From Eledone cirrhosa (lineage: Eukaryota), in contig OZ024747.1 of the NCBI GenBank assembly GCA_964016885.1, forward strand, positions 12,648,001-12,712,000: 64,000 nt of DNA, in the 5' to 3' direction. Under the pieces are notes generated by a model. That model saw only the letters and a program-made list of their open reading frames with translations, was not told the origin of the DNA and ran no database searches. Shown here in pieces: positions 1 through 44,982 of this stretch (positions are counted from its first letter, which is position 1; every line of letters starts with the position of its first letter). The translations under genes and the position numbers were made by a program.

Positions 1-339
1 AATGTGTATGCGTGTGTGTGTGTGTGTGTGCATAGAATGTGTATGCATGTATACAATGTTTGTGCATGTGTGAATACAATATGTATGCATATGGGCATGT
101 GAGCATACAATGTGTGTGTATGTGTCCAAAACCCAATGTCACTGTCGCACATTTTAGTCAAGATAGCTTATTTGTGCTAGCTTCTCTTCATGGACAAAAG
201 GACAAGGATAGTTGTCTTCTGATTTACAGCTGATTAACTATAAAATATATAAATACAATCTCTTACATTTTTGTGTATTTAAACATACCTTAGATTTTCT
301 AATGAATGCTGTGTTGGGCATAAACAATAATATATCATA

Positions 340-545
340 CACTGTAAAGTGGGCGTGTAGGAGTCACAACAAAAAGCACCCAACACACACTGTAAATGCG
401 GTTGGCATTAGGAAGGGCATCCAGCCATAGAAACCTAGCCAGAAACAGTTCTATGTGAGCAAGATACAGTCACCTGACCCAAGTTACCTCTAATGGGACA
501 ACCCATGCTAGCGTGGAAAATGGACGTTAAACGACGATGATGATA
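340..545 (+). mobile_element. RTE 3'UTR-derived repeat. Related pieces at about 1812-2030(-), 6570-6770(-), 7640-7925(+), 12470-12775(+), 17010-17255(+), 20475-20630(-), 28235-28450(-), 28570-28905(+), 33840-33975(-), 34540-34640(+), 35098-35190(-), 41530-41685(+), 41955-42180(+), 50218-50275(-)
   Basis: Shared gttggc.ttaggaagggcatccagcc.tagaaa and/or acccatgctagc.tggaaaa.ggacgttaaacgatgatg. Confidence 0.8.
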
Positions 546-810
546 TCGTTGTCATCATTTTTACGTCCACTTTTCCATGTATAATCTATTTTTAGAATCA
601 TTGAGCAATAGGAAGTTTTTTTGTGAATTTGAAAGACACATCACATTGTTTGACTGAGAAATAGTCTTATAAGTTGGACTTACAAACCCTGAAGATGGAA
701 AAAAAACCTTTTACAACACCACTTGGACGGGGCTGTACAACATTTCATAGCCAAACTACATTGATGCTTTTTTTCAAATTCACAAATATGTATATATATA
801 TATATATATA

Positions 811-1005
811 TAGGAAACTAGTCAGGACCCCGACGGCTGAGCTCCGGCCATTTCAACAGCCAGTTCAGAACTAGCTGTTGAAATGGCCGTAGCTCAGCCG
901 TCGGGGTCCTGACTCTTTTCCTATTATCCACTCTACCACCCATAGTATCGAGTACTCTGGTATGTTATGGTCCACCTGGTTCCTTACCACACTTCCTTCA
1001 TTATA
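811..1005 (+). mobile_element. Penelope-like fold-back element in a (TA)n tract: about 56-bp-arm hairpin (811-923) plus unique tail
   Basis: Arms taggaaactagtcaggaccccgacggctgagc... and ...gctcagccgtcggggtcctgactcttttccta. Contains GAAA-tggccg-TA (880-891). An inverted homolog lies at about 43630-43755. Confidence 0.55.
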
Positions 1006-1010
1006 TATAT

Positions 1011-1370
1011 CATCACCGTTTTACGTCTGTTCTTCCACGCTAGCATGGGTTAGACGGGTTGTCCTGTTGTGGGCAGTGTCTGGTCGGCTGACCATGCCTT
1101 GCTCATGCAGGAACTGATTTGGCTTGATTTCTACAGCTGGATGCCCTTCCTAACACTAACCTCATTTACAGTGAGTGCTGGGTGCTTTTTCGTGGCGCCT
1201 ACACGTCCACTTTACAGTGTGGGCTGGGTGCTTTTTTGCCGTGGCACCTCCACGACCACCTTGCAGTGGGGGGTGTGGGGGCACATTGTCTATATGCTTC
1301 AGCTTGTACCCATGGGAGGTCGGGTACTCTGTATTACTGCGTGACGCCAGAGGTCACGGTCGTGTCTCAT
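1011..1370 (-). mobile_element. 5'-truncated RTE LINE (family RTE-A): ORF end HDRDLWRHAVIQSTRPPMGTS* plus 3'UTR and (GAT)n tail
   Basis: DR..WR motif typical of RTE ORF C-termini. Near-identical copy at 43205-43586. Confidence 0.75.
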
Positions 1371-1692
1371 ATATAAATATATCATATTCCACTTGGTTGT
1401 GGTAGGGCTGATAATGTTAAAACTCAATGTGTCCTTGGAAAGATAGTTGCTGTGAGATTAGGCAGTGTGACCAGTAGTTTTTGTGGTAGGTGATCGCTTA
1501 ACGTATCCTCAAAGAAAATCCATCCAGGTTACAGAGTCATTTACTATATGTGTTTGTCTAGAGTACAGTGAAAAAAGACAGTTTCATTGTTCTATGCTCA
1601 AACACACACATATATAATATATATGCTTGGTGGTTACTGATCTGTCCAGCTCGTTTGTCTACCAGCATATGAAAAAATTATACATCTATGTA

Positions 1693-1768
1693 TTTTGTCT
1701 GAAGAGGACATGTTTTGCTTTATGTAATACATAAAACTTTACATCTTCGAAATATATATAAGATAAAT
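1693..1768 (+). ncRNA. Degenerate hammerhead-like motif
   Basis: CTGAAGA at 1699-1705. Stem II ggacatgt/acatcttc with inner tttatgt/acataaa. GAAA at 1749-1752, palindromic tatata, TA, then aataaa. Stem I pairs poorly. Confidence 0.5.
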
Positions 1769-2050
1769 AAAGAGGATATAAAGTATTTATCTTTTGTTCA
1801 TTACTATTATATCATCATCATCATCATCATCGTTTAACGTCTATCTTCCACGCTAGCATGGGTTAGACAGGAGTTGTCCCACTTGAGGCAAGATTGGTCG
1901 GGTGACCGTGTCTCACTCGTATAGGACTGTATCTGGCAGGTTTTCTACGGCTGGATGCCTTTCCTAACACCAACCACATTTACAGTGTGGACTGGGAGCT
2001 TTTTACCATGTTACCTACACGACCACATTACATATATATATATATATATC

Positions 2051-2139
2051 AGTAAATTTCTAACTGCAAAGGATAAACACTGCTTTAGTTGGTGAGATAT
2101 CCCAACCAAGTGTTTACCCTTTGCAATTTGGAATTTACT
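2051..2139. repeat. Imperfect hairpin (about 31-bp arms) directly after a (TA)n run
   Basis: agtaaatttctaactgcaaaggataaacact versus agtgtttaccctttgcaatttggaatttact. Confidence 0.75.
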
Positions 2140-2263
2140 AAAGTATATCAATTACTCTACTGAATTGTGTTAAGTTCTCTCTGTAGTTTTCATGGTCTGC
2201 TTCATTCTCAACAACTTATACTAAAACTGTGTTTGTGTGTGAGTATATATATTTTTTTTACTT

Positions 2264-2816
2264 ATGTATGTATGTATGTATATAGATATGTATGTATATG
2301 TATGTATATAGATATGTATGTATATGTATGTATATAGATATGTATGTATATGTATGTATATGTATGTATATAGATATGTATGTATATAGATATGTATGTA
2401 TATAGATATGTATGTATATGTATGTATGTATATGTATGTATATAGATATGTATGTATATAGATATGTATGTATATGTATGTATATAGATATGTATGTATA
2501 TGTATGTATATAGATATGTATGTATGTATATGTATGTATATAGATATGTATGTATGTATATGTATGTATATAGATATGTATGTATGTATATGTATGTATA
2601 TAGATATGTATGTATGTATATGTATGTATATAGATATGTATGTATGTATATGTATATAGATATGTATGTATGTATATGTATATATGTATATATATGTATG
2701 TATGTATGTGTGTATGTATTATATATATGGGTGTGTGTGTGTGTGTGTGTATGTATGTGTGTGTATGTATATATATGTGTGTGTGTGTGTGTGTATATAT
2801 ATGTGTGTGTGTGTGT

Positions 2817-2890
<74 letters not shown>

Positions 2891-3088
2891 ATATATGTAT
2901 GTATGTATATGTATATATATGTATGTATGTATATGTATGTATGTATGTGTATGTATGTATGTATGTATGTGTATGTATGTATGTGTATGTATGTATGTAT
3001 GTATGTATGTGTATGTATGTATGTATGTATGTATGTATGTATGTGTATGTATGTATGTATGTATGTATGTATATATGTATGTATGTAT

Positions 3089-3122
<34 letters not shown>

Positions 3123-3279
3123 GTATGTATATATATGTATGTATGTATGTATGTATATATATGTATGTATGTATGTATATATATGTATGTATGTATATAT
3201 ATGTATGTATGTATATATATGTATGTATGTATATATATGTATGTATGTATATATATGTATGTATGTATATATATATATG

Positions 3280-3318
<39 letters not shown>

Positions 3319-3437
3319 GTATGTATGTATATATATGTATGTATGTATGTATATATATATATGTATGTATGTATATATATATATGTATGTATGTATATAT
3401 ATATATGTATGTATGTATATATATATATGTATGTATG

Positions 3438-3476
<39 letters not shown>

Positions 3477-3839
3477 GTATGTATGTATATATGTATGTAT
3501 ATATGTATGTATGTATGTATATATATATGTATGTATATATATATGTATGTATGTATATATATATGTATGTATATATATATGTATGTATATATATATGTAT
3601 GTATGTATATATATATGTATGTATATATATATGTATGTATGTATATATATATGTATGTATATATATATATATGTATGTATATATATATATGTATGTATGT
3701 ATGTATATATATATGTATGTATATATATATATGTATGTATGTATGTATATATATATGTATGTATGTATGTATATATATATATATATGTATGTATATATAT
3801 ATATATATGTATGTATGTATATATATATATATATGTATG

Positions 3840-3884
<45 letters not shown>

Positions 3885-3983
3885 ATGTATGTATGTATAT
3901 ATATGTATGTATGTATATATATGTATGTATATGTATATATATGTATGTATATATATATGTATGTATATATATATATATGTATG

Positions 3984-4015
<32 letters not shown>

Positions 4016-4390
4016 TATATGTATGTATGTATATGTATGTATGTATATGTATGTATGTATATATATATGTATGTATGTATATGTATGTATGTATATGTAT
4101 ATATGTATGTATATATATATATGTATATATATGTATGTATGTATATATGTATATATATATGTGTGTATGTGTATGTATGTATGTATATATATATGTGTAT
4201 GTATGTATGTATATATATATGTGTGTATGTGTATGTATGTATGTATATGTATGTGTATGTATGTATATATGTATGTGTATGTATGTATGTATATATGTAT
4301 GTATGTATGTATGTATGTGTGTATGTATGTGTGTATGTGTATGTATGTATGTATGTATGTATGTGTATGTATGTATGTATGTATATATGT
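2264..4390. repeat. About 2.1-kb compound microsatellite (ATGT)n/(AT)n/(GT)n
   Basis: Seen directly. Explains the long IHTY and YVCM ORFs. Confidence 0.98.
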
Positions 4391-4920
4391 AACTGGCAAC
4401 CCCACCAAGGTTTCTTGGTGAGGAGGGTGACTTTGGACATCCTGCAGGACTAAAAACAAAACCTGTCAAAGGGCAAAGGAGCTCTTAAGAGTCAATGGCC
4501 ATCCAAAATCACCGGGAGAGATGACCCCTTAGCCTTTGTCAAGGCAGATATCTAGGAGAAGGAAAACTCTGATATAACACCTGCAACCCTGATGGTATCC
4601 AATGATGTTGACTTGTTCTTCTTTTTGGTAAATATCATCTTGGTTAAGAGAGTGGGACTGGCTTTGTGCAGTGCCTTTGCTCACTATAAAAGCTTCACGG
4701 CACAGGCATTGCTTTATATCTGGAGATCTCTCTGCACTTGTCGTCACATGGTACCATGGGCCCAGCACTATGTGTCAGTAATTGTCACAAGTGTAGTGTT
4801 TGTACCAGAGTTTTCAAGTCGCTGGCTGGACTAAAAAGTCACACTCGTTCAGCGCATCGGTAGGGGTTCTCCTACATGGATATAAAGTAGTGGCCGTACT
4901 CGAAAACGAGTTGGCAGCCA
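4391..4920 (+). mobile_element. Probable RTE LINE 5'UTR fragment between microsatellites
   Basis: Contains ctaggagaaggaaaactctga. Homologous block at 26520-26780. Confidence 0.5.
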
Positions 4921-4945
4921 CCATGTGTGTATATATATATGTGTA

Positions 4946-4978
<33 letters not shown>

Positions 4979-7900
4979 ATGTATGTATATCTATATATAA
5001 TATATATATTATGAAAACTGTGACTTTATTATATTTCTGATTGTAATATTAGGATGTTTCTAAAGCATGTCTAACATATGTTGTTTGTATACAGTAGTTA
5101 TGAAATACAGGTTATGTATGTATAGTAATAGCACTATAGAAGAAAGGTAAACAAAGTTTTCATCAGAGTTTCAATATTTATTTAGCTAATTTTATTTCTC
5201 TTATGTTGCTAATGTTTCCCTCAAGACCAGGCATTAATGCCACATTATAAACCTATAAACCTGAAAACTTGTGCTATGTAGTTACATGACTGGTGTTTAT
5301 ATGGTAGTGAAACTTTAGTTAAGATGGCTAAATTAACCATGTAATTTTACTTTTGTTTTGTTTCTTCAAGTCTGGATTTGTTTTTGAAGTTGACTGGGAA
5401 GAAAACTCAAAATGGGTTGGGTTGTTTTTTTTTTGTTTTTTAAAAAGATATATTTTTTTATGTAGCTAATAAGAAGTGAGTGTTCAAATGTCGCAAGTTC
5501 ATGTTTAAGGCAGTGAGTGTATGTGTAATTAGACTTGGTAGAGGCGAGCACTGAAGGAAGAAATGTTTATAGAGAAATGGGAGTGGGATAATACTCAATA
5601 AAAGCCTGAGAATTAGGTTGTGAGAATGAAGAGAGGAGGATTTTCAGGGATATCCTACTTCATAGTAGTTACGAAGTTAGTACAAATTTCACAATTGTTT
5701 TCTATATAAATTTTGTACATTTCTACCAATGTTACTAATGGTTTCTTTTGACTGGACATCAAGCCAATTTGAAGGCATAGTTAATGGTAAGTACTTTATC
5801 AACCCTGCAAAAATAGATTTAAAAACAGTCGACCCTGATGGGATTTGAACTCAGAATAATGAGACGAAAAGAGTAGAACTTACAATCAGTGTAGGGCTAT
5901 AAGAATTTGCCGCTAGTTCTCTCCCATCTTTACCCATCACCATCATTCTAAGTTTAGTATTAATTGTAATAGAGATGGGCACTTTTGAAATATGTTAAAG
6001 GAAGGAAGGAGACAGTGAAATTGATGTAAAATGAGAGGGCTGTAGCGTAATTCCAGTCGCATTTTAGACTGTTTAGCTTCTCTACTGTAGTAATTGATAT
6101 ATCTAGAATACTAATATGTCTATTTATTGTGCCAAGGGAGCTCAGACAATAATTAGAAGCAAAGAGTAAAATGTTTGTCAATATGCTATGTGAAGAAGGG
6201 GTGTGAAGGACTTCAAGTCACAAGATATTATATCAAAATGAATCGGTGTCATTATCAGTTCTCTCAAATCATTAAGGTTCACTCAATAGCAATAAAATGA
6301 TTTATTAACTGAGGGTTAATGCAGTCAAGAAAAATTAAACTTTTTTAAGGGCCAATTTTGGATTAAACAGACAATACATATCTAGATTTTAAAGTTGTTT
6401 TTAAATAGCTACAATAATAGTCCAGAGATAAGAACAAACAAGCAATTCTATTTCACATTAAGGAGCATAGAGAAAACCATTTATAGTCTCATAAACCCTG
6501 TGGTCTAGTGAGAAGAGTTCATAACAGGGTGTGTATGGGAATGTCTATTTACTAATGAACTGCTTCTCATTTATCATTTTACATTCCTTTTCCATGCTGA
6601 CATAGACTGGCTGCCTTGTTAGTGTCCAAATCAGTTATTTAGAGTTACATTTTGTTCAAGTCAGGGAGGACTGTGACTTACTCATGCTGTTCAGTTTTTG
6701 GTGATATTTCTATCGCTGGATGCCCTTCCTAACGCCAAGCATTTTATAGTGAATTGGGTGCATTTTATTTTAGCTAGAGAGGTTGTCATGTCCTTAACAT
6801 GAATGAGGAAGCTTCTCTACTCCAAGTAGTCTCTGTTCTTTCTAGGCAAACATGACAGGTAGTATGAATAGCAGAGGAGTGATAACCAAGGGAGAAATAG
6901 AAGAGATTCTGAATATGAGTGTGATGGTGGGGACGTGGTAGGGGAGAGAGTAATTGAGGAGAAAGTGATAGCTACATACTGGTTGTTAGTAGGAGGTTGA
7001 AAAGGTAACAGTATAAGCAACATGAAGAAATAGCAATGATGAGTAATGGAAGAGTGAATGATAGAGAGCAAATGGGATTGGTAATGGTGAGAGTGGTAGA
7101 TGTCATGTAAGAGTCATGTGGAAAAAAGAGAATTATGGTTAACAGTCGGGAGTGGGGTGGAACTCATGGGTATTGCATAGGGACAGATTAGATGCCTTTC
7201 CTCATTAGATAGATGATATGATGGAAGATAGGCAGAGAGGTGCAGTAAAAATGACAATGAACATTTATTTAAAAGATGGAGTAAACAAAATAGAACCAGA
7301 AAGAAGAGGCATAGAAAAACAAAAAAGTCATTGAGAAGGTTACGGAATGTGACAAAAGAATTTTGACAAACTAACTAATGACTAGTAATAAAGTTGGAGT
7401 GAAAATCAAATTGTGTGTTTTTAGTGGCAAAATTGGCAACATGACCATCCTTAAACATGACAATGAAAATATAATTTAAAATAAAAACTGCAGAAATTGA
7501 GAATCTAGAAATGTGAGCATAAGTCAAAATGCCTGAAGATAAATAGGTTTCAGTGCAGTAGATGAATTAATGTGTCTAACAAGAACCGTTGTCAACTAAA
7601 GACTGTTCAAATGACTTGTTGGAGAGTGTAGATAAGTAGTGTTATCTGTGTAAAGTGGTAGTGCTGATAAAGTGGTAGTCATGATAAAATACACTCGGCC
7701 CACACTGTGAAGAAAGAGTGCTGATACTGATGAAAAAAAATCAGGGAAAATGGACCTGTTACATGTTGTGAAGTAGTTAGGTTTTTGGAAGGGTATTCAG
7801 TCATAGAAGCCATGCCAAAATGGAACCTAGGATGAACAAGACACAGTCAGGTGATCTGTTCAGCCTCAGGACATAACAACCCATCTAACTCATGGCAACA

Positions 7901-9416
7901 TGGAAAATAGATGTTAAATGATGAGTGTTAATAGTAGTGTGTGTGAGGTTTAGAGAACTTGAATTTCTGTGGCAATAGAACATGAATATTGAATGCAGAT
8001 GATAGGAAGATGGACGACGGATCGGCGGCGTGTAACACACACTGTCACATGCACAGGCGCCGCACGTAAAACTAACTTGGACGACGGATCGGCGGCGGCA
8101 TGTAACACACACAGACACATAAACATTTGAAAAGGAAGGATTAGTCAAGTCTGGTCTGTTAGATGAGCCATGTTAACATAGAAAAATTGAGTGTAAATCA
8201 GTTGACAAAACAGTTGGTTGAATTGTGTAACAGTGATACTTATGTTAGTATATACATAACAAGTGAACAATGCTGACTATAAAAGTTCTGAAAGTTGGAG
8301 TCGAAAGGCAACTGCAGTAGTGGTAGATTGGGGAAAATTTAACATATAGTTGATTGATCAAAAACCGATAGCATTTAACCACATTGATGAGATAGCACAA
8401 GATTGATACACTTAGAAGAATGTTTTATAGCAGACCATTGATGCCAGTGGAGAAAAATAGCTGTTATGATAAGACTGTCTGATTAGAGATTATCTTGAGT
8501 TATTCAACAATAACTACATGTGTTGAGTAATGGAATTTGAGCTTGGATCAACAGTTGAGTATTTTGATACTTATTACTTGATCTGGATAGAGAATTAATC
8601 TAATAACAATGATTCTAACAGTAATAAAGATTTTAACCTTTTAAACAGCAACCTTCCTAAAACTGCTTTTGTTAAATTGTTCAAATTTTAAATCAAATCT
8701 CTGGCTGAAATCTCATTTTTACATGATTGATACTATTGGATTTCAGAGGTTAAATGTTTTTTTTTATAAACTTTTCATAATTCTTGATTCTTTGGAGAAT
8801 TAAAACACATAGGCAGTGTGTTCTTGTTGGAAATATTGTTTTAAAATAAAGGGTTAAAATAAAAGTCGAATGAAAAAGCCAATGTCTGGAATATTAGGGT
8901 TATGAAAGCAAACATGTAACCTCATTTAATTTGTCATATAATCCTAACTTCACTGACATTAATAAAATATTTGGATTATTGGAATCTGTAAAGAAGTAAA
9001 TAAAAACTTTGCCATTTACTTCAAGTACTTTTATTTATTTATTTATTTTCTTTAATCTAATCATAGCCAAAACTAATAATTATAGTCTTTTACCAAGCAG
9101 AATATTTTTATGTTTAAAAGTTTAATGTTTGTAAACTCATTCTGTACTGCATGAAACAACATTAACAAAACATTTCTGAAAAATACAAAACAACACTGTG
9201 GCTGCATCACATTAAAAATTGAAGTCTTTAGTTTACTGCAAATTTTCACAATGATCTGTCCACAAGTAAAGATAGTTTTGCATTTGAATTAACAAACATG
9301 TTTTGAGATATTTTCTTTTATACTTTTCAAGAATGTCCTGCTAATGGGATATAAGATGTTATATGTTAATACCTGAAAACTGAGAAAAACTAAATGCAAG
9401 TTATATATATATATAT

Positions 9417-9952
9417 AAGTGCAGGGCAATAAAGATAGACGGTAGCCATGGAGTAGGCAGACCCAGAAAAACCTGGGACGACCTGATAAATTCCGACCTC
9501 ACACACTTACACCTCTCCAAGACAATGTCACTGGACCGAGATCTTTGGCGGTACTCAGTAATAGAGAAGACCCGCCTTACCTGAAATACAAAGTAAAACC
9601 TACTACAGTCAGTAGGCATCTCTAACCCCCCGCCCATCCACACCGCCCCTTTCAATGTAAAGTTATGTTGGTGCCACAACATCCAGTCTGAAACAAATGA
9701 GATCGTGTAAGTGTCACGACAAAAAAACACACAGTCCACGCTGTAATGTGGCCGTGTAGGTAACACGGTAAAAACCTCCCAGACCCACACTGTAAATGTG
9801 GTTGGTGTTAGGAAGGGCATCCAACTGTAGAAAACCTGCCAGACAGTCCTATGCGAGCAAGACAACCACTCTTGCCTCAAGTGGGAAAACTCCCGTCCAA
9901 ACCCATGCGAGCGTGGAAGATGGACGTTAAACGATGATGATGATGATGATGA
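9417..9952 (+). mobile_element. 5'-truncated RTE LINE: KCRAIKIDGSHGVGRPRKTWDDLINSDL...DRDLWRYSVIEKTRLT* plus 3'UTR and (GAT)n tail
   Basis: GRPRKTW and DR..WR motifs. Stop at 9582-9584. 3'UTR contains ggaagggcatcca. Tail gatgatgat. Confidence 0.85.
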
Positions 9953-9955
9953 TAT

Positions 9956-10300
9956 ATTTGTTGTAAGGTTGCTTAGATGCATCCATAGGTTGAGCACTCT
10001 ATGCTCCTTCAGAGCAGAGTATAATATTATAGAAAACAAAGAATCAGTGATACATCGAACACACAATTTATTAGCGTATTACAATTGTTTCTCCAGCAAA
10101 CGGCTCGAGGTACGATCTATTTGTGGATCGAACGTGACTCTGGATTCGCAAGTTCCTCAGATACGTCTAGCAACTTCGAAGCAAATCTTCTGGTTCGATC
10201 CACAAATAGATCATACCTCGAACTGTTCGCTGGAGAAGCAATTGTGATACGTTAATAAATTGTTTCGATGCATCACTCATTCTCCATTTTCTATTATATA
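9956..10300 (-). mobile_element. Penelope-like fold-back element: about 265-bp imperfect palindrome (10030-10293) carrying the hammerhead
   Basis: Arms of about 105 bp are reverse complements with mostly transition differences. Flanked by TA runs. Confidence 0.6.
10075..10165 (-). ncRNA. Type I hammerhead ribozyme-like motif with extended stem II and palindromic stem III (Penelope-like element type)
   Basis: Minus strand reads cgtat-CTGAGGA-(long stem II including gcgaa/tttgc and cgatc/gatcg)-GAAA-caattg-TA-atacg, then aataaa. Stem I cgtat/atacg pairs 5/5. GUA cleavage triplet. The base of stem II is imperfect. Confidence 0.7.
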
Positions 10301-11809
10301 TATATAGTCAAACCCTTGCTAGCAGGGAAAGTGGATGTTAAACTATTATGATGTATATCTATGAAGGCAGTTAGATGAAGCAAGCTGAAACTTCAGTCAC
10401 TGTCCCTTTTCTACTGAGAAATTTATAGTCTACCCACAAGTAGTGTGTTCATTCAGTAAATTTATATATATAATATATATATATATATAATACGCACACG
10501 CACACACACACACATACACACACACACACTACCTCTTCCCTCCACTAATCTTATAGGAGAGCCAAAAAAGAGTAAGTGCCGACCTTCCCTGCAGACTAAG
10601 TTATTTTAAAAAGAAGTGAAACATTTTTTAATAAGACTTTTTTCATATATAGTTGCTCATTGGTTAAGGTGCTGGAATGTGGAACCATAGAAATTGCACT
10701 TTATTGTTAGGCAGGTTTAGTGAGGAGGGCCTATAGTTCTGTACAAAAGAAATAATTTCAACAATTTATACACTGTAGTACAATATCATTGAATCTCTTC
10801 TAAAATAGAAAAGTGTATTTGCGTATCTAAATGGCTGCAAAATGTCTAATTAGGGAAAAAGTAATGTTTTGTCATTGTTTAAAGTGATATTTTTTTTTTT
10901 TGTTTGTTGTTGTACATCTAAGGTATATACAACAAATGTTAGACTTCTATTACTAAATTCAGCTTAAATATAGTATCGTTTACATTACCATTTATGTGTT
11001 TTGAAGATAAGTTTTATAAATAAACTCATTAGTTTTGACCCTTGGATATATTGAAACAATTATAGCAGCTTTTTTTTGCTTACAGATAATCTATTGTGCG
11101 AGATTGTGTGCTGTAGTAGCGCACATAATATTTTCTGGGACTAATTTTAATGTTATTTAACTCTTACATATTATCACCAATCGTCTTGTCTTTTCCTCTT
11201 AATAATGCATATATCCTTCTGTTTAGTATTATATGTCAGTTGATACATGAATGGCTGCAAGGCAGGATTTTCTGTAAAATTCCTTTTCTAAGTATCTATC
11301 TAAACCAAAATCATTGTCAGCGGGTAAGATGTAGTTATGATATAACAAAGCTTTGTTCCTCAGCTATGTTTCTGAGGGTATTCTGTTGGTTAATATAACA
11401 TGCACAAAGCTAGTATTTGTTGTTGTTGGGTTGGGTTTGTTAATAAGAGCAGTACAAGTATTCTGTTACTTTGTGTCAATAGAAAAGAAAACAGCAGGTG
11501 AATTGAAGTTTGACTTGTTTTCTATCTAGATCTTTCTTATGTCCACTTTTAGCAGTGGTAATGAATGAATTTAATTTGAAGATGTTAATAGTATACTCAG
11601 TTATTTTAAAAATCTTAAAGATATGTTTTTAAACTTTGCACCTGCAGTAAAGTAATTACAAGGCATTTAGTGATAACAAAAGAATTTACTTATTGTTCAG
11701 GTTTTGCTTAATATATTTTTAAATACAGCTTACACTTGAAAATTACAAAATTTAGAAGGGTTCAACTTATACCTGCTCAGCAGAGTTTGGAATGAAATGG
11801 ACCTGTGTC

Positions 11810-23487: not shown

Positions 23488-25144
23488 ATCCACCATTTGT
23501 GTTGTGATGTCCTTGTGTTATGATGGCCACCAGTTGTGCTATGATAGCCACCAGTTGTGTTGTGATGTCAACCAATTGTGTTGTGATGTCCACCAGTTGT
23601 GTTGTGATGTCCACCAGTTGTGTTGTGATGTCCACCAGTTGTGTTGTGATGTCCACCAGTTGTGTTGTGACGTCCACCAGTTGTGTTGCGACGTCCACCA
23701 GTTGTGTTGCGACGTCCACCGGTTGTGTTGCGACGTCCACCGGTTGTGTTGCGACGTCGACCGGCTGGGTTGCGACGTCCACCAGTTGTGTTGCGACGTC
23801 CACCAGTTGTGTTGCGACGTCCACCAGTTGTGTTGCGACGTCCACCAGTTGTGTTGCGACGTCCACCAGTTGTGTTGCGACGTCCACCAGTTGTGTTGCG
23901 ACGTCCACCGGCTGGGTTGCGACGTCCACCAGTTGTGTTGCGACGTCCACCAGTTGTGTTGCGACGTCCACCAGTTGTGTTGCGACGTCCACCAGTTGTG
24001 TTGCGACGTCCACCAGTTGTGTTGCGACGCCCACCAGTTGTGTTGCGACGCCCACCAGTTGTGTTGCGACGTCCACCAGTTGTGTTGCGACGTCCACCAG
24101 TTGTGTTGCGACGTCGACCAGTTGTGTTGCGACGTCGACCAGTTGTGTTGCGACGTCCACCAGTTGTGTTGCGACGTCCACCAGTTGTGTTGCGACGTCC
24201 ACCAGTTGTGTTGCGACGTCGACCAGCTGGGTTGCGGCGTCCGCCAGTTGTGTTGTGACGTCCACCAGTTGTGTTGCGGCGTCCACCAGTTGTGTTGCGA
24301 CGTCGACCAGCTGGGTTGTGGCGTCCACCAGTTGTGTTGTGGCATCCACCAGTTGTGTTGCGGCGTCCACCAGTTGTGTTGCGACGTCGACCAGCTGGGT
24401 TGTGGCGTCCACCAGTTGTTGCGACGTCCACCAGTTGTGTTGTGACGTCGACCAGTTGTGTTGTGGCGTCCACCAGTTGTGTTGTGACGTCCACCAGTTG
24501 TGTTGCGACGTCCACCAGTTGTGTTGCAGCGTCCACCAGTTGTGTTGCGACGTCGACCAGCTGGGTTGCGGCGTCCACCAGCTGTGTTGTGGCGTCCACC
24601 AGTTGTGTTGTGGCGTCCACCAGTTGTGTTGTGGCGTCCACCAGTTGTGTTGTGGCGTCCACCAGTTGTGTTGTGGCGTCCACCAGTTGTGTTGTGACGT
24701 CCACCAGTTGTGTTGCGGCGTCCACCAGTTGTGTTGCGGCGTCCACCAGTTGTGTTGCGGCGTCCACCAGTTGTGTTGCGGCGTCCACCAGTTGTGTTGC
24801 GACGTCGACCAGCTGGGTTGTGGCGTCCACCAGTTGTTGCGACGTCGACCAGCTGGGTTGTGGCGTCCACCAGTTGTGTTGTGGCGTCCACCAGTTGTGT
24901 TGCGACGTCCACCAGTTGTGTTGCGACGTCGACCAGCTGGGTTGTGGCGTCCACCAGTTGTGTTGTGGCGTCCACCAGTTGTGTTGCGACGTCCACCAGT
25001 TGTGTTGCGACGTCGACCAGCTGGGTTGTGGCGTCGACCAGTTGGGTTGTGGCGTCGACCAGTTGGGTTGTGGCGTCCACCAGTTGTGTTGCGACGTCCA
25101 CCAGTTGTGTTGCGACGTCCACCAGTTGTGTTGTGACGTCCACC
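23488..25144. repeat. 21-bp GC/CpG-rich minisatellite, about 78 units, consensus gtccaccagttgtgttgcgac
   Basis: Direct tandem periodicity of 21 bp. Variants gtgatgtc, gtggcgtc and gtcgaccagctgggtt. Confidence 0.97.
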
Positions 25145-25247
25145 TATCTGTTAGGCACAAACTCTCTAGTTTTCCTTATTTCTTTCTCTAAAAAGAGAAA
25201 TATAATATACTTAGGCTCGTTCATATCATCACCAACATCATTGTTGT

Positions 25248-25584
25248 CACCACCACCACCACCACTACCATCACCACCACTACTACTACCACCACCACCA
25301 CTACCACTACCACCACCACCACTACCACCACCACCACTACCACCACCACCACCACCACTACTACCACCATCACCACTACTACCACCACTACCATCACCAC
25401 TACCACCACCACCACCACCACCATCACCATCATCACTACCACCACCATCACTACTACCACCACCACCACTACCACCACCATCACTACTACCATCACCACT
25501 ACCATCACCACCACCACTACCATCACCACCACCACTACCATCACCACTACCACTACCACCACCACCACTACCATCACCACCACT
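25248..25584. repeat. (CCA/CTA/TCA)n triplet microsatellite
   Basis: Seen directly. Confidence 0.95.
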
Positions 25585-26519
25585 CATGCTATATTTCTGG
25601 CAATAATTTCCATTAATTCTCTCCGGGTCTTCATCAGGAATTATGTCAGGATATAAAGAAGACATTGACAGTGAGCAGTATTAACTGTTTCAATGAAGAC
25701 CAAGCCTTATATGATTAAGATTTAATTTGAATGCATTGTTGTTTATTAGCTCTAGAGAATACATATCCATGATGGCAGTTTCATTTTTGGTGAATTTATC
25801 TGAAAGAAGAATTAAAAGAAATAAAAAAAAAATAAAAACATTCAAAGAGTATTAGATGTGCTTAACTGTATAGATAAAGGGACCGAATTGGCAGAGTTGT
25901 TAGAACATCAGATAGTCTTTTGTAGTATTTGTTCCAGCTCTCGGTATTCTATGTTCAAAACCTGTCAAAGAGTCAGGAGGATTCTTCAGCTGTGTCAAAG
26001 ACATGACAACCTCCTTAGTGCTGGTATCGTGATAAAATGCACTCTGTTGTGTGTGGGATCATATGTAAGCAATATGTGGGTTGCTAGCTCTTCTGAGACC
26101 GTGTTAAATTGCAGGAATGTGAGTGACATAAACTGTCAAAGACATAAACAGTCTAGAATATATAAACTGTCAATGAAGGTCTCTTTTATGGGTAAGGCTC
26201 GGTGGAGGATGTGCCTTTCTATGGGTATGACATGGTATAGGATGGGTCTTTCTATAGGTGTAGCTCAGAAAGAGGTGGTCTCTTTTATAGGTATGACTAG
26301 ATGGAGTATGGGCTCTGAGCAAATTCCTGACTTGTTTCAAAGAAGTACTAAACCTTTAGTAGCACCTATACAGCCCAATGATTTCTTAAAGTACAGGCTA
26401 ACCATTCTTTACAATAACCACTGTACCCTGAGAGTTGTCTTTCTTTCTCTCTCTCTCTACATTAGAAATAAAAGCTGGATGAAAAAAACCCGATGGGTAT
26501 GTATATGTGTGTATGTGTG

Positions 26520-42275: not shown

Positions 42276-42612
42276 TCATCATTCATCATCATCATTTCCT
42301 TTTACGTCCGCTTTTTCCCTGCTTGCAAGGGTGGGACGGGAACTGATTCTGGCTTGATTTCTACAGCTGGATGCCCTTCCTAACACCAACCTCATTTACA
42401 GTGAGTGCTGGGTGCTTTTTTGCCGTGGCACCTCCACGTCCACTTTGCAGTGGAATGATATGGACCCCAGTCCCTATCATCTCATTTCTACAGCTGAGTA
42501 AACTGGAGCAATGTGAAATAAAGTGTCTTGCTCAAGGAAACAACACATCGCCTGGTCTGAGAATTGAACTCACAATCTTTTGATTGCAAGGCCAATGCTC
42601 TAAGCCATGTGC

Positions 42613-42615
<3 letters not shown>
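42276..42615 (-). mobile_element. SINE family C copy
   Basis: Reverse complement of 44641-44982 with few differences. Confidence 0.85.
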
Positions 42616-42667
<52 letters not shown>

Positions 42668-43204
42668 ATAGTGAAATCTTATGGTTTCTACTGATCTGTG
42701 TGAAGTCAGAAACTGTAAAAGCTCACAATCGAATATTTTCTTTTTCTTCATAAATATGCCAACTCAATTTCCCATTATGCATTGAGGACTACATTGATTA
42801 GTGATCTTGCTAGGCTTACCACCATAGACACTCCCTATATATGTGTGTGTGTGTGTGTATATATAAGCTGAATTATGTGGTGCAGTTGCTCATGTGCAAG
42901 TTTCTGCACCACATGCACATTAACAAATATAGATTTTTTTTTTTTTGATTTTTTTTTTTTTTTTAATATGACTTAGATCTTGTCATTTATCACTTCTACT
43001 AGTAAACTGTGCATCAAAATTCATTGATTTTGCTTCTTGGTGTGTGATCATAACTGTTAGTCTGCACCCTTTCATTTTCAGTCTGATAAGCAGTTCTGTT
43101 CTTTTGAGATAGCTAGGTAAAATATTGTCTATCACTACACTACAATATAGTAAGCAAATTCATATCCATTTCAGATTCTCTCTCTCACTATTTATATATA
43201 TATA

Positions 43205-43586
43205 TCATCATCATCATCATCATCATCACCGTTTTACGTCTGTTCTTCCACACTAGCATGGGTTAGACGGGTTGTCCTGTTGTGGAGCAGTGTCTGGTCG
43301 GCTGACCATGCCTTGCTCATACAGGAACTGATTCTGGCTTGATTTCTACAGCTGGATGCCCTTCCTAACACCAACCTCATTTACAGTGAGTGCTGGGTGC
43401 TTTTTCGTGGCGCCTACACGTCCACTTTACAGTGTGGGCCGGGTGCTTTTTTGCCGTGGCACCTCCACGACCACCTTGCGGTGGGGGCATATTGTCTATA
43501 TGCTTCAGCTTGTACCCATGGGAGGTCGGGTACTCTGTATTACTGCGTGACGCCAGAGGTCACGGTCGTGTATCATTGCCTTTATA
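43205..43586 (-). mobile_element. 5'-truncated RTE LINE (family RTE-A)
   Basis: Near-identical to 1011-1370. (CAT)n tail on the + strand. The ORF-track peptide ends ...HDRDLWRHAVIQSTRPPMGTS. Confidence 0.75.
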
Positions 43587-43619
43587 TGTATGTATACATA
43601 TGTGTGTGTGTATAAATGC

Positions 43620-43755
43620 GGATAGAACCAGTTTGAAACTAGTTGGACCATTACTGAACAGAGTACTTGATACTTGGGGTTATAGAATATATTGTAAAGA
43701 GTTGGGACTCGATGGCTGGGCTCTTGCTGTTTCAACAGCTAGTCCTTGACTAGCT
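43620..43755 (-). mobile_element. Diverged copy of the 811-1005 element family, without the fold-back arm
   Basis: ggaccattactgaacagagtacttgatac...gtttcaacagctagtcc aligns to the reverse complement of 868-985. Confidence 0.6.
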
Positions 43756-43767
43756 ATATATATATAT

Positions 43768-44186
43768 TTATTTATTAAAATAACAGATTAAAGTTTAAGC
43801 AAAGAATCGCTGCTTTCACCCTTAACGGGATCTTCTGAAACTAAAAAGTCAATCTGTGAACACAGAAGTAAATATTTCAAAAAACGTTGCAACCGGAAGA
43901 AGACAGGAAGACGATACTTTGGTTCGTGGAAACGTTCCCTGGCAAAGAACAGAAAAAAAAACGAAGATAATATGTCATTATTTGGAGCAGTGAGAACAAT
44001 AACACGCAAAGACAAAACCACATTTATGGTATAAATGAAGTCGTAGACTAATATTCTATTAGGTGGTTCATGGAGACGTTCTCTGGCAATGAACAGAAAA
44101 AACGAAGATAATACGTCATTATGTGGAGCCATTACAGTTATCGAGCCCTCTTTGGATTTTAGTCTTCAAATTTATTATTATTACTA
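43768..44186 (-). mobile_element. TA-flanked element with internal direct repeat (about 43918-43990 and 44065-44130); Penelope-like remnant
   Basis: Both ends recur at 52343-52458. Minus strand has cagaaga-tccc-gttaa-gggt-gaaa followed by aataaa. Confidence 0.45.
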
Positions 44187-44196
44187 TATATATATA

Positions 44197-44580
44197 GAGA
44201 GAAATGAGGCAAGCATGCTCCGTTGGATGTGCAGTGTAAATGTGCGTGAACGACCCAGCATGAATGTGTTGAGAGAGAAACTGTGTCTGAGAGGGTTAGA
44301 ATGTAGTGTACGGGAGAGGAGACTGAGGTGGTGTGGACAAGTGATGCGCATGGAGGATGACCGATGGGTGAAGAAGTGCCAGGAAATGCCAGTTGAAGGA
44401 AGACGTGGTAGAGGTAGACCACGAAAAACATGGGCGGAGGTGGTGAGAACAGACCTCAGATCGTTGAAGCTCACGGTGGAGATGACGAAGGACCGTGACG
44501 AGTGGAGAGATGCTATGCTGAATAAGACCCGTCCCACCCTTGCGAGCAGGGAAGAGCGGACGTAAAATGATGATGATGAT
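44197..44580 (+). mobile_element. 5'-truncated RTE LINE (family RTE-B) with intact ORF C-terminus
   Basis: MLRWMC...RRLRWCGQVMRMEDDRWVKK...GRRGRGRPRKTW...DRDEWR. Ends acgtaaaatgatgatgatgat. Confidence 0.9.
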
Positions 44581-44640
44581 ACCTGGGTGAACCTACAGTA
44601 ACTTCACATTATACTCCCTGGATATATATATTTATATATG

Positions 44641-44982
44641 GAGGCACATGGCTTAGTGGTTAGAGCATTGGCCTTGCAATCGAAAGGTTGTGAGTTCAAT
44701 CCTCAGACCAGGTGATGTGTTGTTTCCTTGAGCAAGACACTTTATTTCACATTGCTCCAGTTTACTCAGCTGTAGAAATGAGATGATAGGGACTGGGGTC
44801 CCTATCATTCCACTGCAAAGTGGTCGTGAAGGCGCCACGGAAAAAAAGCACCCAGCACTCACTGTAAATGAGGTTGGTGTTAGGAAGGGCATCCAGCTGT
44901 AGAAATCAAGCCAGAATCAGTTCCCGTCCCACCCTTGCAAGCAGGGAAAAGTGAACGTAAAATGAAATGAAATGAAATGATG
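44641..44982 (+). mobile_element. tRNA-derived CORE-type SINE (family C), full length
   Basis: A box tggcttagtgg and B box gagttcaatcc. CORE-like tccttgagcaagacacttta...actcagctgtagaaatgag. RTE-derived 3' end. Confidence 0.85.

Follow-up and report, generated by a model that had tools for sequence, protein, structure and literature searches.

The window analyzed here, a stretch of 64,000 nucleotides, contains a fold-back insertion whose long arm carries a hammerhead motif on the minus strand (Table 1). A type I hammerhead descriptor finds a single match in the 64-kb window, at minus-strand positions 10165–10075. Block-shuffled windows contain 0.2 descriptor matches each, and a match with a 6-nt palindromic stem III occurs in 0 of 30. 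The window copy has a core of the form CUGANGA, the GAAA and NUH elements, a closing stem I, and a short palindromic stem III. The positions given for all hammerhead parts in an earlier note, which was made by inspection of the letters, are exact on the minus strand. Cleavage is predicted to occur between 10080 and 10079 of this strand. In the predicted fold, stem III consists of 2 bp plus an AAUU loop in the monomer, or of 8 bp in a swapped dimer.

The canonical model (Rfam Hammerhead_1) has a G10.1–C11.1 pair and a stem II of ∼4 bp. At this position the window motif has an A·A mismatch instead, and it has no Rfam match. The search that had been recommended as a check, carried out on positions 9000–11500 at E ≤ 10, returned no hammerhead, only microsatellite-driven miRNA and snoRNA matches. 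We have filed the window motif as a variant type I hammerhead that lies outside the canonical Rfam model. The earlier description of a type I hammerhead with a long stem II and a palindromic stem III is borne out.

Other repeats are present in the window. On the left (9500–9950), the insertion is bordered by a SINE-like repeat of very high abundance that terminates in (GAT)n, and 47 other fetched loci match this flank; the right flank (10307–10345) is apparently another 3′ fragment of such a repeat. Two inverted SINE-like copies 2 kb apart surround a LINE-like ORF fragment (about 44200–44560) at 42277–44982, and a GC-rich tandem minisatellite at 23500–25700 has long open frames on both strands that are probably non-coding. 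Another fold-back of ∼115 bp is located beside (TA)n at 810–924, with tail-like sequence to ∼980, and related palindromes occur near other loci, L034 among them. This fold-back is probably a truncated end that belongs to another Penelope-like element (PLE) family.

Table 1. Coordinates of the fold-back arms and of the hammerhead parts in the window
Feature	Positions	Strand	Remarks
Long arm	9956..10191	-	5′-truncated sense copy of PLE 3′ end, terminating in tail; 86% to L076 over 9952-10192
PLE tail	9956..10021	-	11-nt deletion in window copy (family 75-80 nt)
AATAAA (AAUAAA)	10072-10067	-	Directly 3′ of stem I; retained in all family consensuses compared
Stem I 3′ strand, atacg	10079-10075	-	
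GAAA, stem III and cleavage site	10080..10091	-	GAAA 10091-10088; CAATTG stem III 10087-10082; U16.1/H17 10081/10080 (GUA)
Internal-loop motif, 3′ half	10102..10106	-	GAGCU in family; final base altered in window copy
Internal-loop motif, 5′ half, AGAGUC	10136..10141	-	Invariant in consensus of families A, B, C, E
Stem II spacer	10153-10092	-	62 nt; A·A closing mismatch; six private substitutions
Catalytic core CUGAGGA (CTGAGGA)	10160-10154	-	Kept in family consensus
Stem I 5′ strand, cgtat	10165-10161	-	6-7 bp in consensus
Short arm	10192/3..10294	+	Inverted, tail-less; 5′-truncated inside stem II (about +26 from core); stops at pLTR end
(TA)n target remnant	10294..10306	.	Same context in most copies

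Parent element and fold-back anatomy

Judged from its sequence relatives, the fold-back corresponds to the pLTR, or 3′ end, of a Penelope-like retrotransposon of ∼4.4 kb from the Hydra clade. A 27-nt pLTR motif has 385 exact matches in the genome and 0 for its control, and the 40 candidates scored among 2,439 yielded 81 matches. A same-strand path from the ORF through EN and UTR to the hammerhead exists in L076, L077, L175, and L178, among others. The layout of L175 is pLTR plus tail, ORF, UTR, and pLTR, which gives the unit length of ∼4.4 kb. The next unit's 5′ UTR begins with the tail, and the ATG is located ∼40 nt past the tail end. The element has two 3′ ends, the pLTR end and the tail end, that are 75–80 nt apart, and both are located upstream of the ATG at short TA-rich tracts.

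Motifs and tblastn searches place a single ORF, with RT followed by a C-terminal GIY-YIG, upstream of the pLTR in L175, L076, L077, L092, and L178. Its protein marks are RWR or RWK (RWR in the window lineage, RWK in the sister L089), DKT for DKG, YRDD, a CxCX5C linker, and CxxC/CxH around conserved E and N, with no CCHH. The same motif set is given for the Hydra clade in section 11 of PMC8557442, and the N-terminal part of the ORF resembles, by eye, the published Hydra-1_Obim (supplement of PMC8557442). A Pfam search with the ORFs returned GIY-YIG at E=0.11, below the cut-off, and named no RT family, and a PDB search with the ORFs gave no match. One sister ORF has 50 unnamed relatives at E ≤ 0.001. 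Among 25 long loci examined, no intact family-A ORF was found; the frames are broken and the longest is 426 aa. Frames of 547–861 aa are present in sister families. In one sister Hydra-type element (L193:2514-5099:+), an open frame of 861 codons includes RT and EN and has no Pfam match. The earlier note had proposed a Penelope-like origin and advised a search for linked RT/GIY-YIG ORFs, and the longer copies do enter a Hydra-type RT–EN ORF.

The insertion begins at about position 9956. Its start had been set at 10030, which overlooked the tail of ∼75 bp on the left. The 5′ end of the long arm is located at −31/−32 from the core, within a hot spot of 5′ ends in this family that is described below. 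When the short arm is aligned with the long arm, there are 89 matches, 12 mismatches (12/101 aligned bases), and 3 gap columns. The short arm lacks the core because it is 5′-truncated inside stem II, and its GAAG and GTG are private mutations of the window copy. Thus, the peculiarities reported earlier for the plus-strand arm are real, and truncation plus private mutation account for them. Given the divergence between the two arms, and given that copies are at the median 94% identical to the consensus (44 arms), the insertion is old.

The plan of the fold-back was read from an alignment of 28 of the 30 best loci, two duplicates having been dropped. These 28 loci share a sense and an inverted copy of one sequence, with the 5′ ends fused at varying points. 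In the usual layout, the 3′ end of one arm is extended by ∼75–80 bases, and its partner stops in (TA)n. Head-to-head pairs, which correspond to the inverted pLTR piece recognized earlier, are present at 34 of 40 loci in a sample that is biased towards query length. In this same length-biased sample, exactly one arm has the tail in 28 of the 34 pairs (18 on the long arm and 10 on the short), and 33 of the 34 fold-backs have distinct junctions. The proposed TA targeting is also upheld, as pLTR and tail ends mostly run into (TA)n. This sequence adjoins 27/46 pLTR ends that do not continue into tail and is entered by 25/40 terminal tail ends, with overlapping loci counted more than once in both tallies. 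In its passages on PLE anatomy, PMC8557442 lists 5′ truncation, an inverted 5′-truncated copy, and a tail at one end. Insertions of the present family include a pLTR in partial tandem (L175), the inverted 5′-truncated copy, and the one-ended tail.

The fold-back had originally been taken for a separate non-autonomous element of 265 bp or a retrozyme. An independent unit of ∼265 bp, either MITE-like or retrozyme, that is amplified by PLE or Tc1/mariner machinery would be in keeping with the fact that most copies are short and end in TA, and a preprint argues that animal retrozymes derive from PLE pLTRs (10.64898/2026.07.22.740005). Two loci, L293 and L294, have a common tail-to-arm junction (281 bp at 94% identity) between unrelated flanks, which reflects either a recurrent junction or a composite that was re-mobilised, and some composites may have moved as units. 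However, we consider an independent unit to be highly improbable. A MITE or fold-back DNA element has a fixed interior and identical termini, whereas the ends here are asymmetric, nearly every junction is different, and the tail can be on either arm. Non-LTR retrozymes are non-coding head-to-tail repeats of 150–450 bp, but 250 loci include 0 same-strand tandem pairs under 1.5 kb, and the parent is coding. Furthermore, the 5′ extents of copies range from +84 to beyond −300, and onward into the ORF. We conclude that the fold-back very probably consists of two 5′-truncated copies of the 3′ end of a Hydra-clade PLE, joined head to head in TA-rich DNA, and that the longer copy contains a type I hammerhead motif, conserved in the family, whose stem II measures 62 nt. 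This hammerhead is predicted to fold in the consensus, with cleavage that is likely to be weak or to depend on dimers or protein, and it is likely inactive in the window.

Conservation of the hammerhead and its long stem II

The hammerhead parts are not a product of chance, since the pattern core-N48..76-GAAACAATTGTM has 1,633 matches in the species' own genome (3.0 Gb) versus 4 for the reversed control. The same pattern with N12..42 has 519 matches in this genome versus 4 for the control. Conservation was then assessed in 89 arms that were found by DNA similarity and that span the whole motif. The core is kept in 73 of these, GAAA in 83, CAAUUG in 65, UH in 84, and at least four stem I pairs in 85, with all parts intact together in 43. 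Within the family, core conservation is 0.96, barely above that of the flanks (0.90–0.93). The consensus of the 89 arms retains the core, GAAA, GUA, and stem I, so the loss of CUGANGA, GAAA, UH, or stem I pairing that would have spoken against the first reading is not seen.

At position 10.1/11.1, A·A is present in 78 of the 89 arms. The G10.1–C11.1 pair is termed highly conserved among PLE hammerheads in a passage of PMC4209133. By our own count, however, the base of stem II is mismatched, as U·U or U·C, in 15 of 26 Hydra rows in File S2 of PMC8557442. An axolotl hammerhead that has U·U at this location is described in PMC7229834 as cleaving, to 22% in monomeric form and to a greater extent when dimeric. 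The A·A mismatch is therefore a family trait with precedent in the clade, yet one that deviates from the G–C pair. The earlier note had suspected from this mismatch that the window copy may be inactive. Inactivity is indeed probable, but the mismatch is not the reason.

Matches picked by the motif belong to several diverged families that have the same core, stem III, and downstream AAUAAA, with spacers of 12 to 78 nt. The core and GAAACAATTGT were selected by the search pattern, whereas stem I, which is absent from the pattern, was not. Stem I pairs at 4/4 positions in 22 of 29 long-spacer matches versus a background of 4%, and in 14 of 30 short-spacer matches (background 4–6%). In a short-stem hammerhead family (L099, L124, L146), there is a second core, CUGAAGA, ∼45 nt upstream of the first, which is possibly a duplicated 5′ half.

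Stem II is 57–63 nt long in the long-arm family. Pairing was tested on 33 long-arm sequences from seven subfamily groups, using 500 shuffles and slid controls. In these 33 sequences, 82% of cells are paired versus 26–44% in the slid controls, and double-sided changes occur in 67 cells versus 33.8 after shuffling (0/500). Such double changes are found in six of seven basal stem II pairs and four of five stem I pairs, and position 10.1/11.1 is unpaired in 21 of the 33. In the covariation check suggested earlier, there is an excess of double changes in stems I and II, but the pair-count and pair-type measures do not exceed shuffles (39/500 and 120/500, respectively), and RNAalifold predicted no structure from the cross-family alignment of the same 33 sequences. 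Most of the double changes map to one deep split (A/E/F vs B/C), so they represent few events.

The consensus sets for families A, B, C, and E comprise 106, 50, 24, and 10 arms, some of which are counted twice via overlapping loci, and the 10-arm E set includes some non-E loci. A mixed family-F consensus was omitted from the fold energies. Stem II has a common architecture in all four consensuses (A, B, C, and E), with z between −1.6 and −3.7 relative to mononucleotide shuffles, and a natural near-consensus copy has a z of only −1.1 vs dinucleotide shuffles. An 11-nt internal-loop motif is invariant in the four consensuses. Invariant columns elsewhere number 17/52 in the rest of stem II, 0/23 in the 5′ flank, and 9/37 in the 3′ flank. 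The invariance of the internal loop has a column-shuffle p of about 0.007 for a motif that was picked after inspection of the data. Readings of the loop as a K-turn or SECIS element were judged by eye against the consensus of these motifs and do not fit. An alternative stem II register, UCCAG/CUGGA, was also rejected, as it pairs solely via a private change in the window copy.

A long stem II that covaries between sister families and has an invariant internal loop appears to be new. In our literature searches, we found no account of PLE or cephalopod hammerheads whose stem II is long, although such motifs may be shown in the supplements of PMC4209133, PMC7229834, PMC11167929, and 10.64898/2026.07.22.740005. 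The available portions of PMC3088659 and PMC6155905 contain nothing on the long arm. Length alone does have precedent, because two spike-moss PLE-X hammerheads in File S2 of PMC8557442 reach ∼50 nt. PLE hammerheads may in fact be undercounted, because short spacer caps, such as the 7–17 nt of the core search described in PMC8557442, would miss them. A metagenome scan for the long-arm motif gave one match (L250), which lacks the stem II fold and was judged to be chance. Other hammerhead families with 72–78-nt spacers (L172, L173, L174, L102) are unrelated to family A, and stem II may therefore have lengthened more than once. L172 has a strong fold (z −4.4), but its MFE structure is not a hammerhead.

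Calculated energies indicate how the consensus and the window copy differ. The hammerhead fold is 0.2–2.5 kcal/mol above the MFE in the four consensuses (within 0.2 kcal/mol for family A, whose constrained energy is −23.0) and 7.1 above it in the window copy. In every family tested, a swapped double hammerhead is more favorable than two monomers by ∼7.5 kcal/mol, in line with the dimer model. The family consensus is predicted to adopt a hammerhead fold that would likely cleave weakly, or only as a dimer or with the element protein. Stem II of the window copy is degraded (z −0.4). All six substitutions of this copy are in stem II, and another comparison, with contigs from two runs of one sample, shows the family letter at the same six places. 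For the full fold-back in situ, the hairpin has an energy of −153.7 versus −80.1 with the ribozyme forced, a cost of ∼74 kcal/mol, and the antisense arm would be transcribed before the ribozyme. The six private changes and the antisense arm make it likely that the window copy is inactive.

Arm 5′ ends and a proposed mechanism of insertion

An earlier analysis of 5′-end clustering in similarity-picked loci was discarded as query-biased and was repeated on motif-picked loci. For this purpose, 89 arms were picked solely by the motif 3′ of the cut site, from the first 90 of 385 places. In 87 of these arms, the sequence continues 5′ beyond the cleavage site. An accumulation of 5′ ends at +81, which would be a fossil sign of cleavage, is absent from the 89 arms, with 0 ends at +81, 1 at +82, and 1 at +84. 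These observations suggest, in agreement with the anole PLE (PMC11167929), that the templates were mostly uncut, in which case cleavage would not be obligatory before insertion. Four arms (L301, L314, L333, L361) end at +72, the first base of the stem III palindrome, where placement is ambiguous due to the palindrome, suggesting template switching through it.

The same data bear on the proposal that the hammerhead is a non-cleaving vestige in this lineage, in which the long stem II would be retained as a hairpin that either binds protein or is promoter-proximal while the core is carried along. This would agree with the A·A at 10.1/11.1 and with the copying of arms across the cut site. Moreover, PMC11167929 describes normal insertion by ribozyme mutants of the purified anole PLE, with no reads that terminate at the site, and PLE hammerheads are characterized as weak cleavers in vitro in PMC4209133. 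However, the core, GAAA, NUH, and stem I pairing persist over families whose stem II ranges from 12 to 78 nt and whose 5′ flanks are nearly unrelated, and the axolotl U·U hammerhead still cleaves. A vestige is thus, in our view, unlikely, and we favor a ribozyme with weak or assisted activity.

A distinct pattern is observed upstream of the core. Twenty alignments terminate at −37 to −25, two of which continue as subfamily sequence and were removed. The remaining 18, out of 56 arms at risk, compare with an expectation of 2.8 (p about 1e-10). A second sample, which overlaps the first in part, has 20 of 42 ends at −41 to −26, and the few measurable junctions of families B, C, and E fall in a range similar to the family-A hot spot. 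Farther upstream than about −100, apparent ends often reflect breaks in the alignment between subfamilies and are not true ends. The hot spot of arm 5′ ends appears to be new.

The explanation that we hold to be somewhat favored is that the hot spot 25–37 nt upstream of the core marks the 5′ end of the element RNA; otherwise, it would reflect an RT pause. The hot spot could alternatively be an RT pause, a template-switch point, or a 3′ splice site, an explanation that we regard as possible but not probable. A purine tract and a small hairpin at about −27 to −12 are suggestive of pausing or switching, but the ends are located just past the hairpin, not before it. A YAG at about −36 to −34 in four reference copies would suit a splice site, as would the Penelope intron of D. 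virilis, which is reported in PMC4209133 to end at helix I. However, there is no constant upstream exon; the sequences abutting hot-spot ends vary, which argues against a spliced one, and the ends abut (TA)n or the inverted arm.

Insertion could proceed as follows. By extension from the purified anole PLE (PMC11167929), the RNP would nick both strands of the (TA)n target, and RT would start at two TA-rich internal sites in the RNA, the pLTR end and the tail end. One cDNA would be made per strand, and both cDNAs would run off or abort before being joined at their truncated ends. The element RNA would begin just upstream of the hammerhead, from a start site in the pLTR, and many cDNAs would stop there. 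On this view, the autonomous element would give rise to short fold-backs as run-off products, and these would not constitute a separate family. Any action of the ribozyme would be slow, take place in tandem transcripts, or follow protein binding, possibly via the internal loop. The window copy would likely be a dead product of insertion.

One combined proposal goes further and must be considered doubtful. Stem II may have expanded in this lineage into a structured arm of ∼60 nt whose invariant, purine-rich internal loop is a docking site through which the protein of the element gates the ribozyme, the RNA may start ∼33 nt upstream of the ribozyme, and the hundreds of short fold-backs may be a fossil record of where transcription starts and of the two sites at which RT begins. 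In the one purified system, the ribozyme is protein-assisted and dispensable for insertion (PMC11167929). The present genome holds a natural series in which the same core and stem III are combined with stem II lengths of 12 to 78 nt, including the conserved internal-loop motif. This series makes the role of the arm testable, be it a protein dock, a tertiary contact, or neutral. In addition, the many PLE insertions that are short and inverted could be explained by the 5′-end hot spot.

Comparison with known systems

The combination of a PLE pLTR, a hammerhead, and an inverted copy is already known. Among the closest systems are the Hydra-clade PLEs described in the relevant parts of PMC8557442 (Hydra-1_Obim, Penelope-n_HM). 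They have RT plus a C-terminal GIY-YIG, the RWK-like, DKT, and CxCX5C marks, and no CCHH, as well as (TA)n targets, a pLTR, an inverted 5′-truncated copy, a tail, and a 3′ hammerhead that is often mismatched at the base of stem II. According to the same source, the A9-to-G12 spacer is 26 nt or less in published Hydra elements, versus 57–63 nt here, and Hydra-clade units are generally under 3 kb, versus ∼4.4 kb here. The tail is 75–80 nt here versus the 30–40 bp given there for PLEs, a value that is descriptive and not defining.

Two spike-moss elements, PLE-X1_sMoe and PLE-X1_sTam (PMC8557442 File S2), have PLE hammerheads with a stem II region of ∼50 nt and are marked there as non-canonical. 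They differ in belonging to an EN-minus, rDNA-targeting clade and in having a short stem with one large loop, in contrast to the multi-helix arm with a conserved internal loop found here. The Anolis element Poseidon PAc, as presented in the parts of PMC11167929 drawn on here, is similar in its two 3′ ends that define the tail, its AT-rich target, and a hammerhead that is apparently uncut before reverse transcription. In PAc, the hammerhead extends over the start of the ORF, and the sites at which RT begins are within the ORF and do not resemble the target. In the present element, both 3′ ends are upstream of the ATG, and the short TA-rich tracts at which they are located are similar to the (TA)n target. 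Finally, the metazoan non-LTR retrozymes treated in PMC7229834 share the type I hammerhead, the 2-bp stem III, the palindromic tetraloop, and the potential to dimerize. Unlike the retrozymes covered there, the family described here has no tandem 150–450-bp arrays, descends from a coding parent, and occurs as head-to-head copies.
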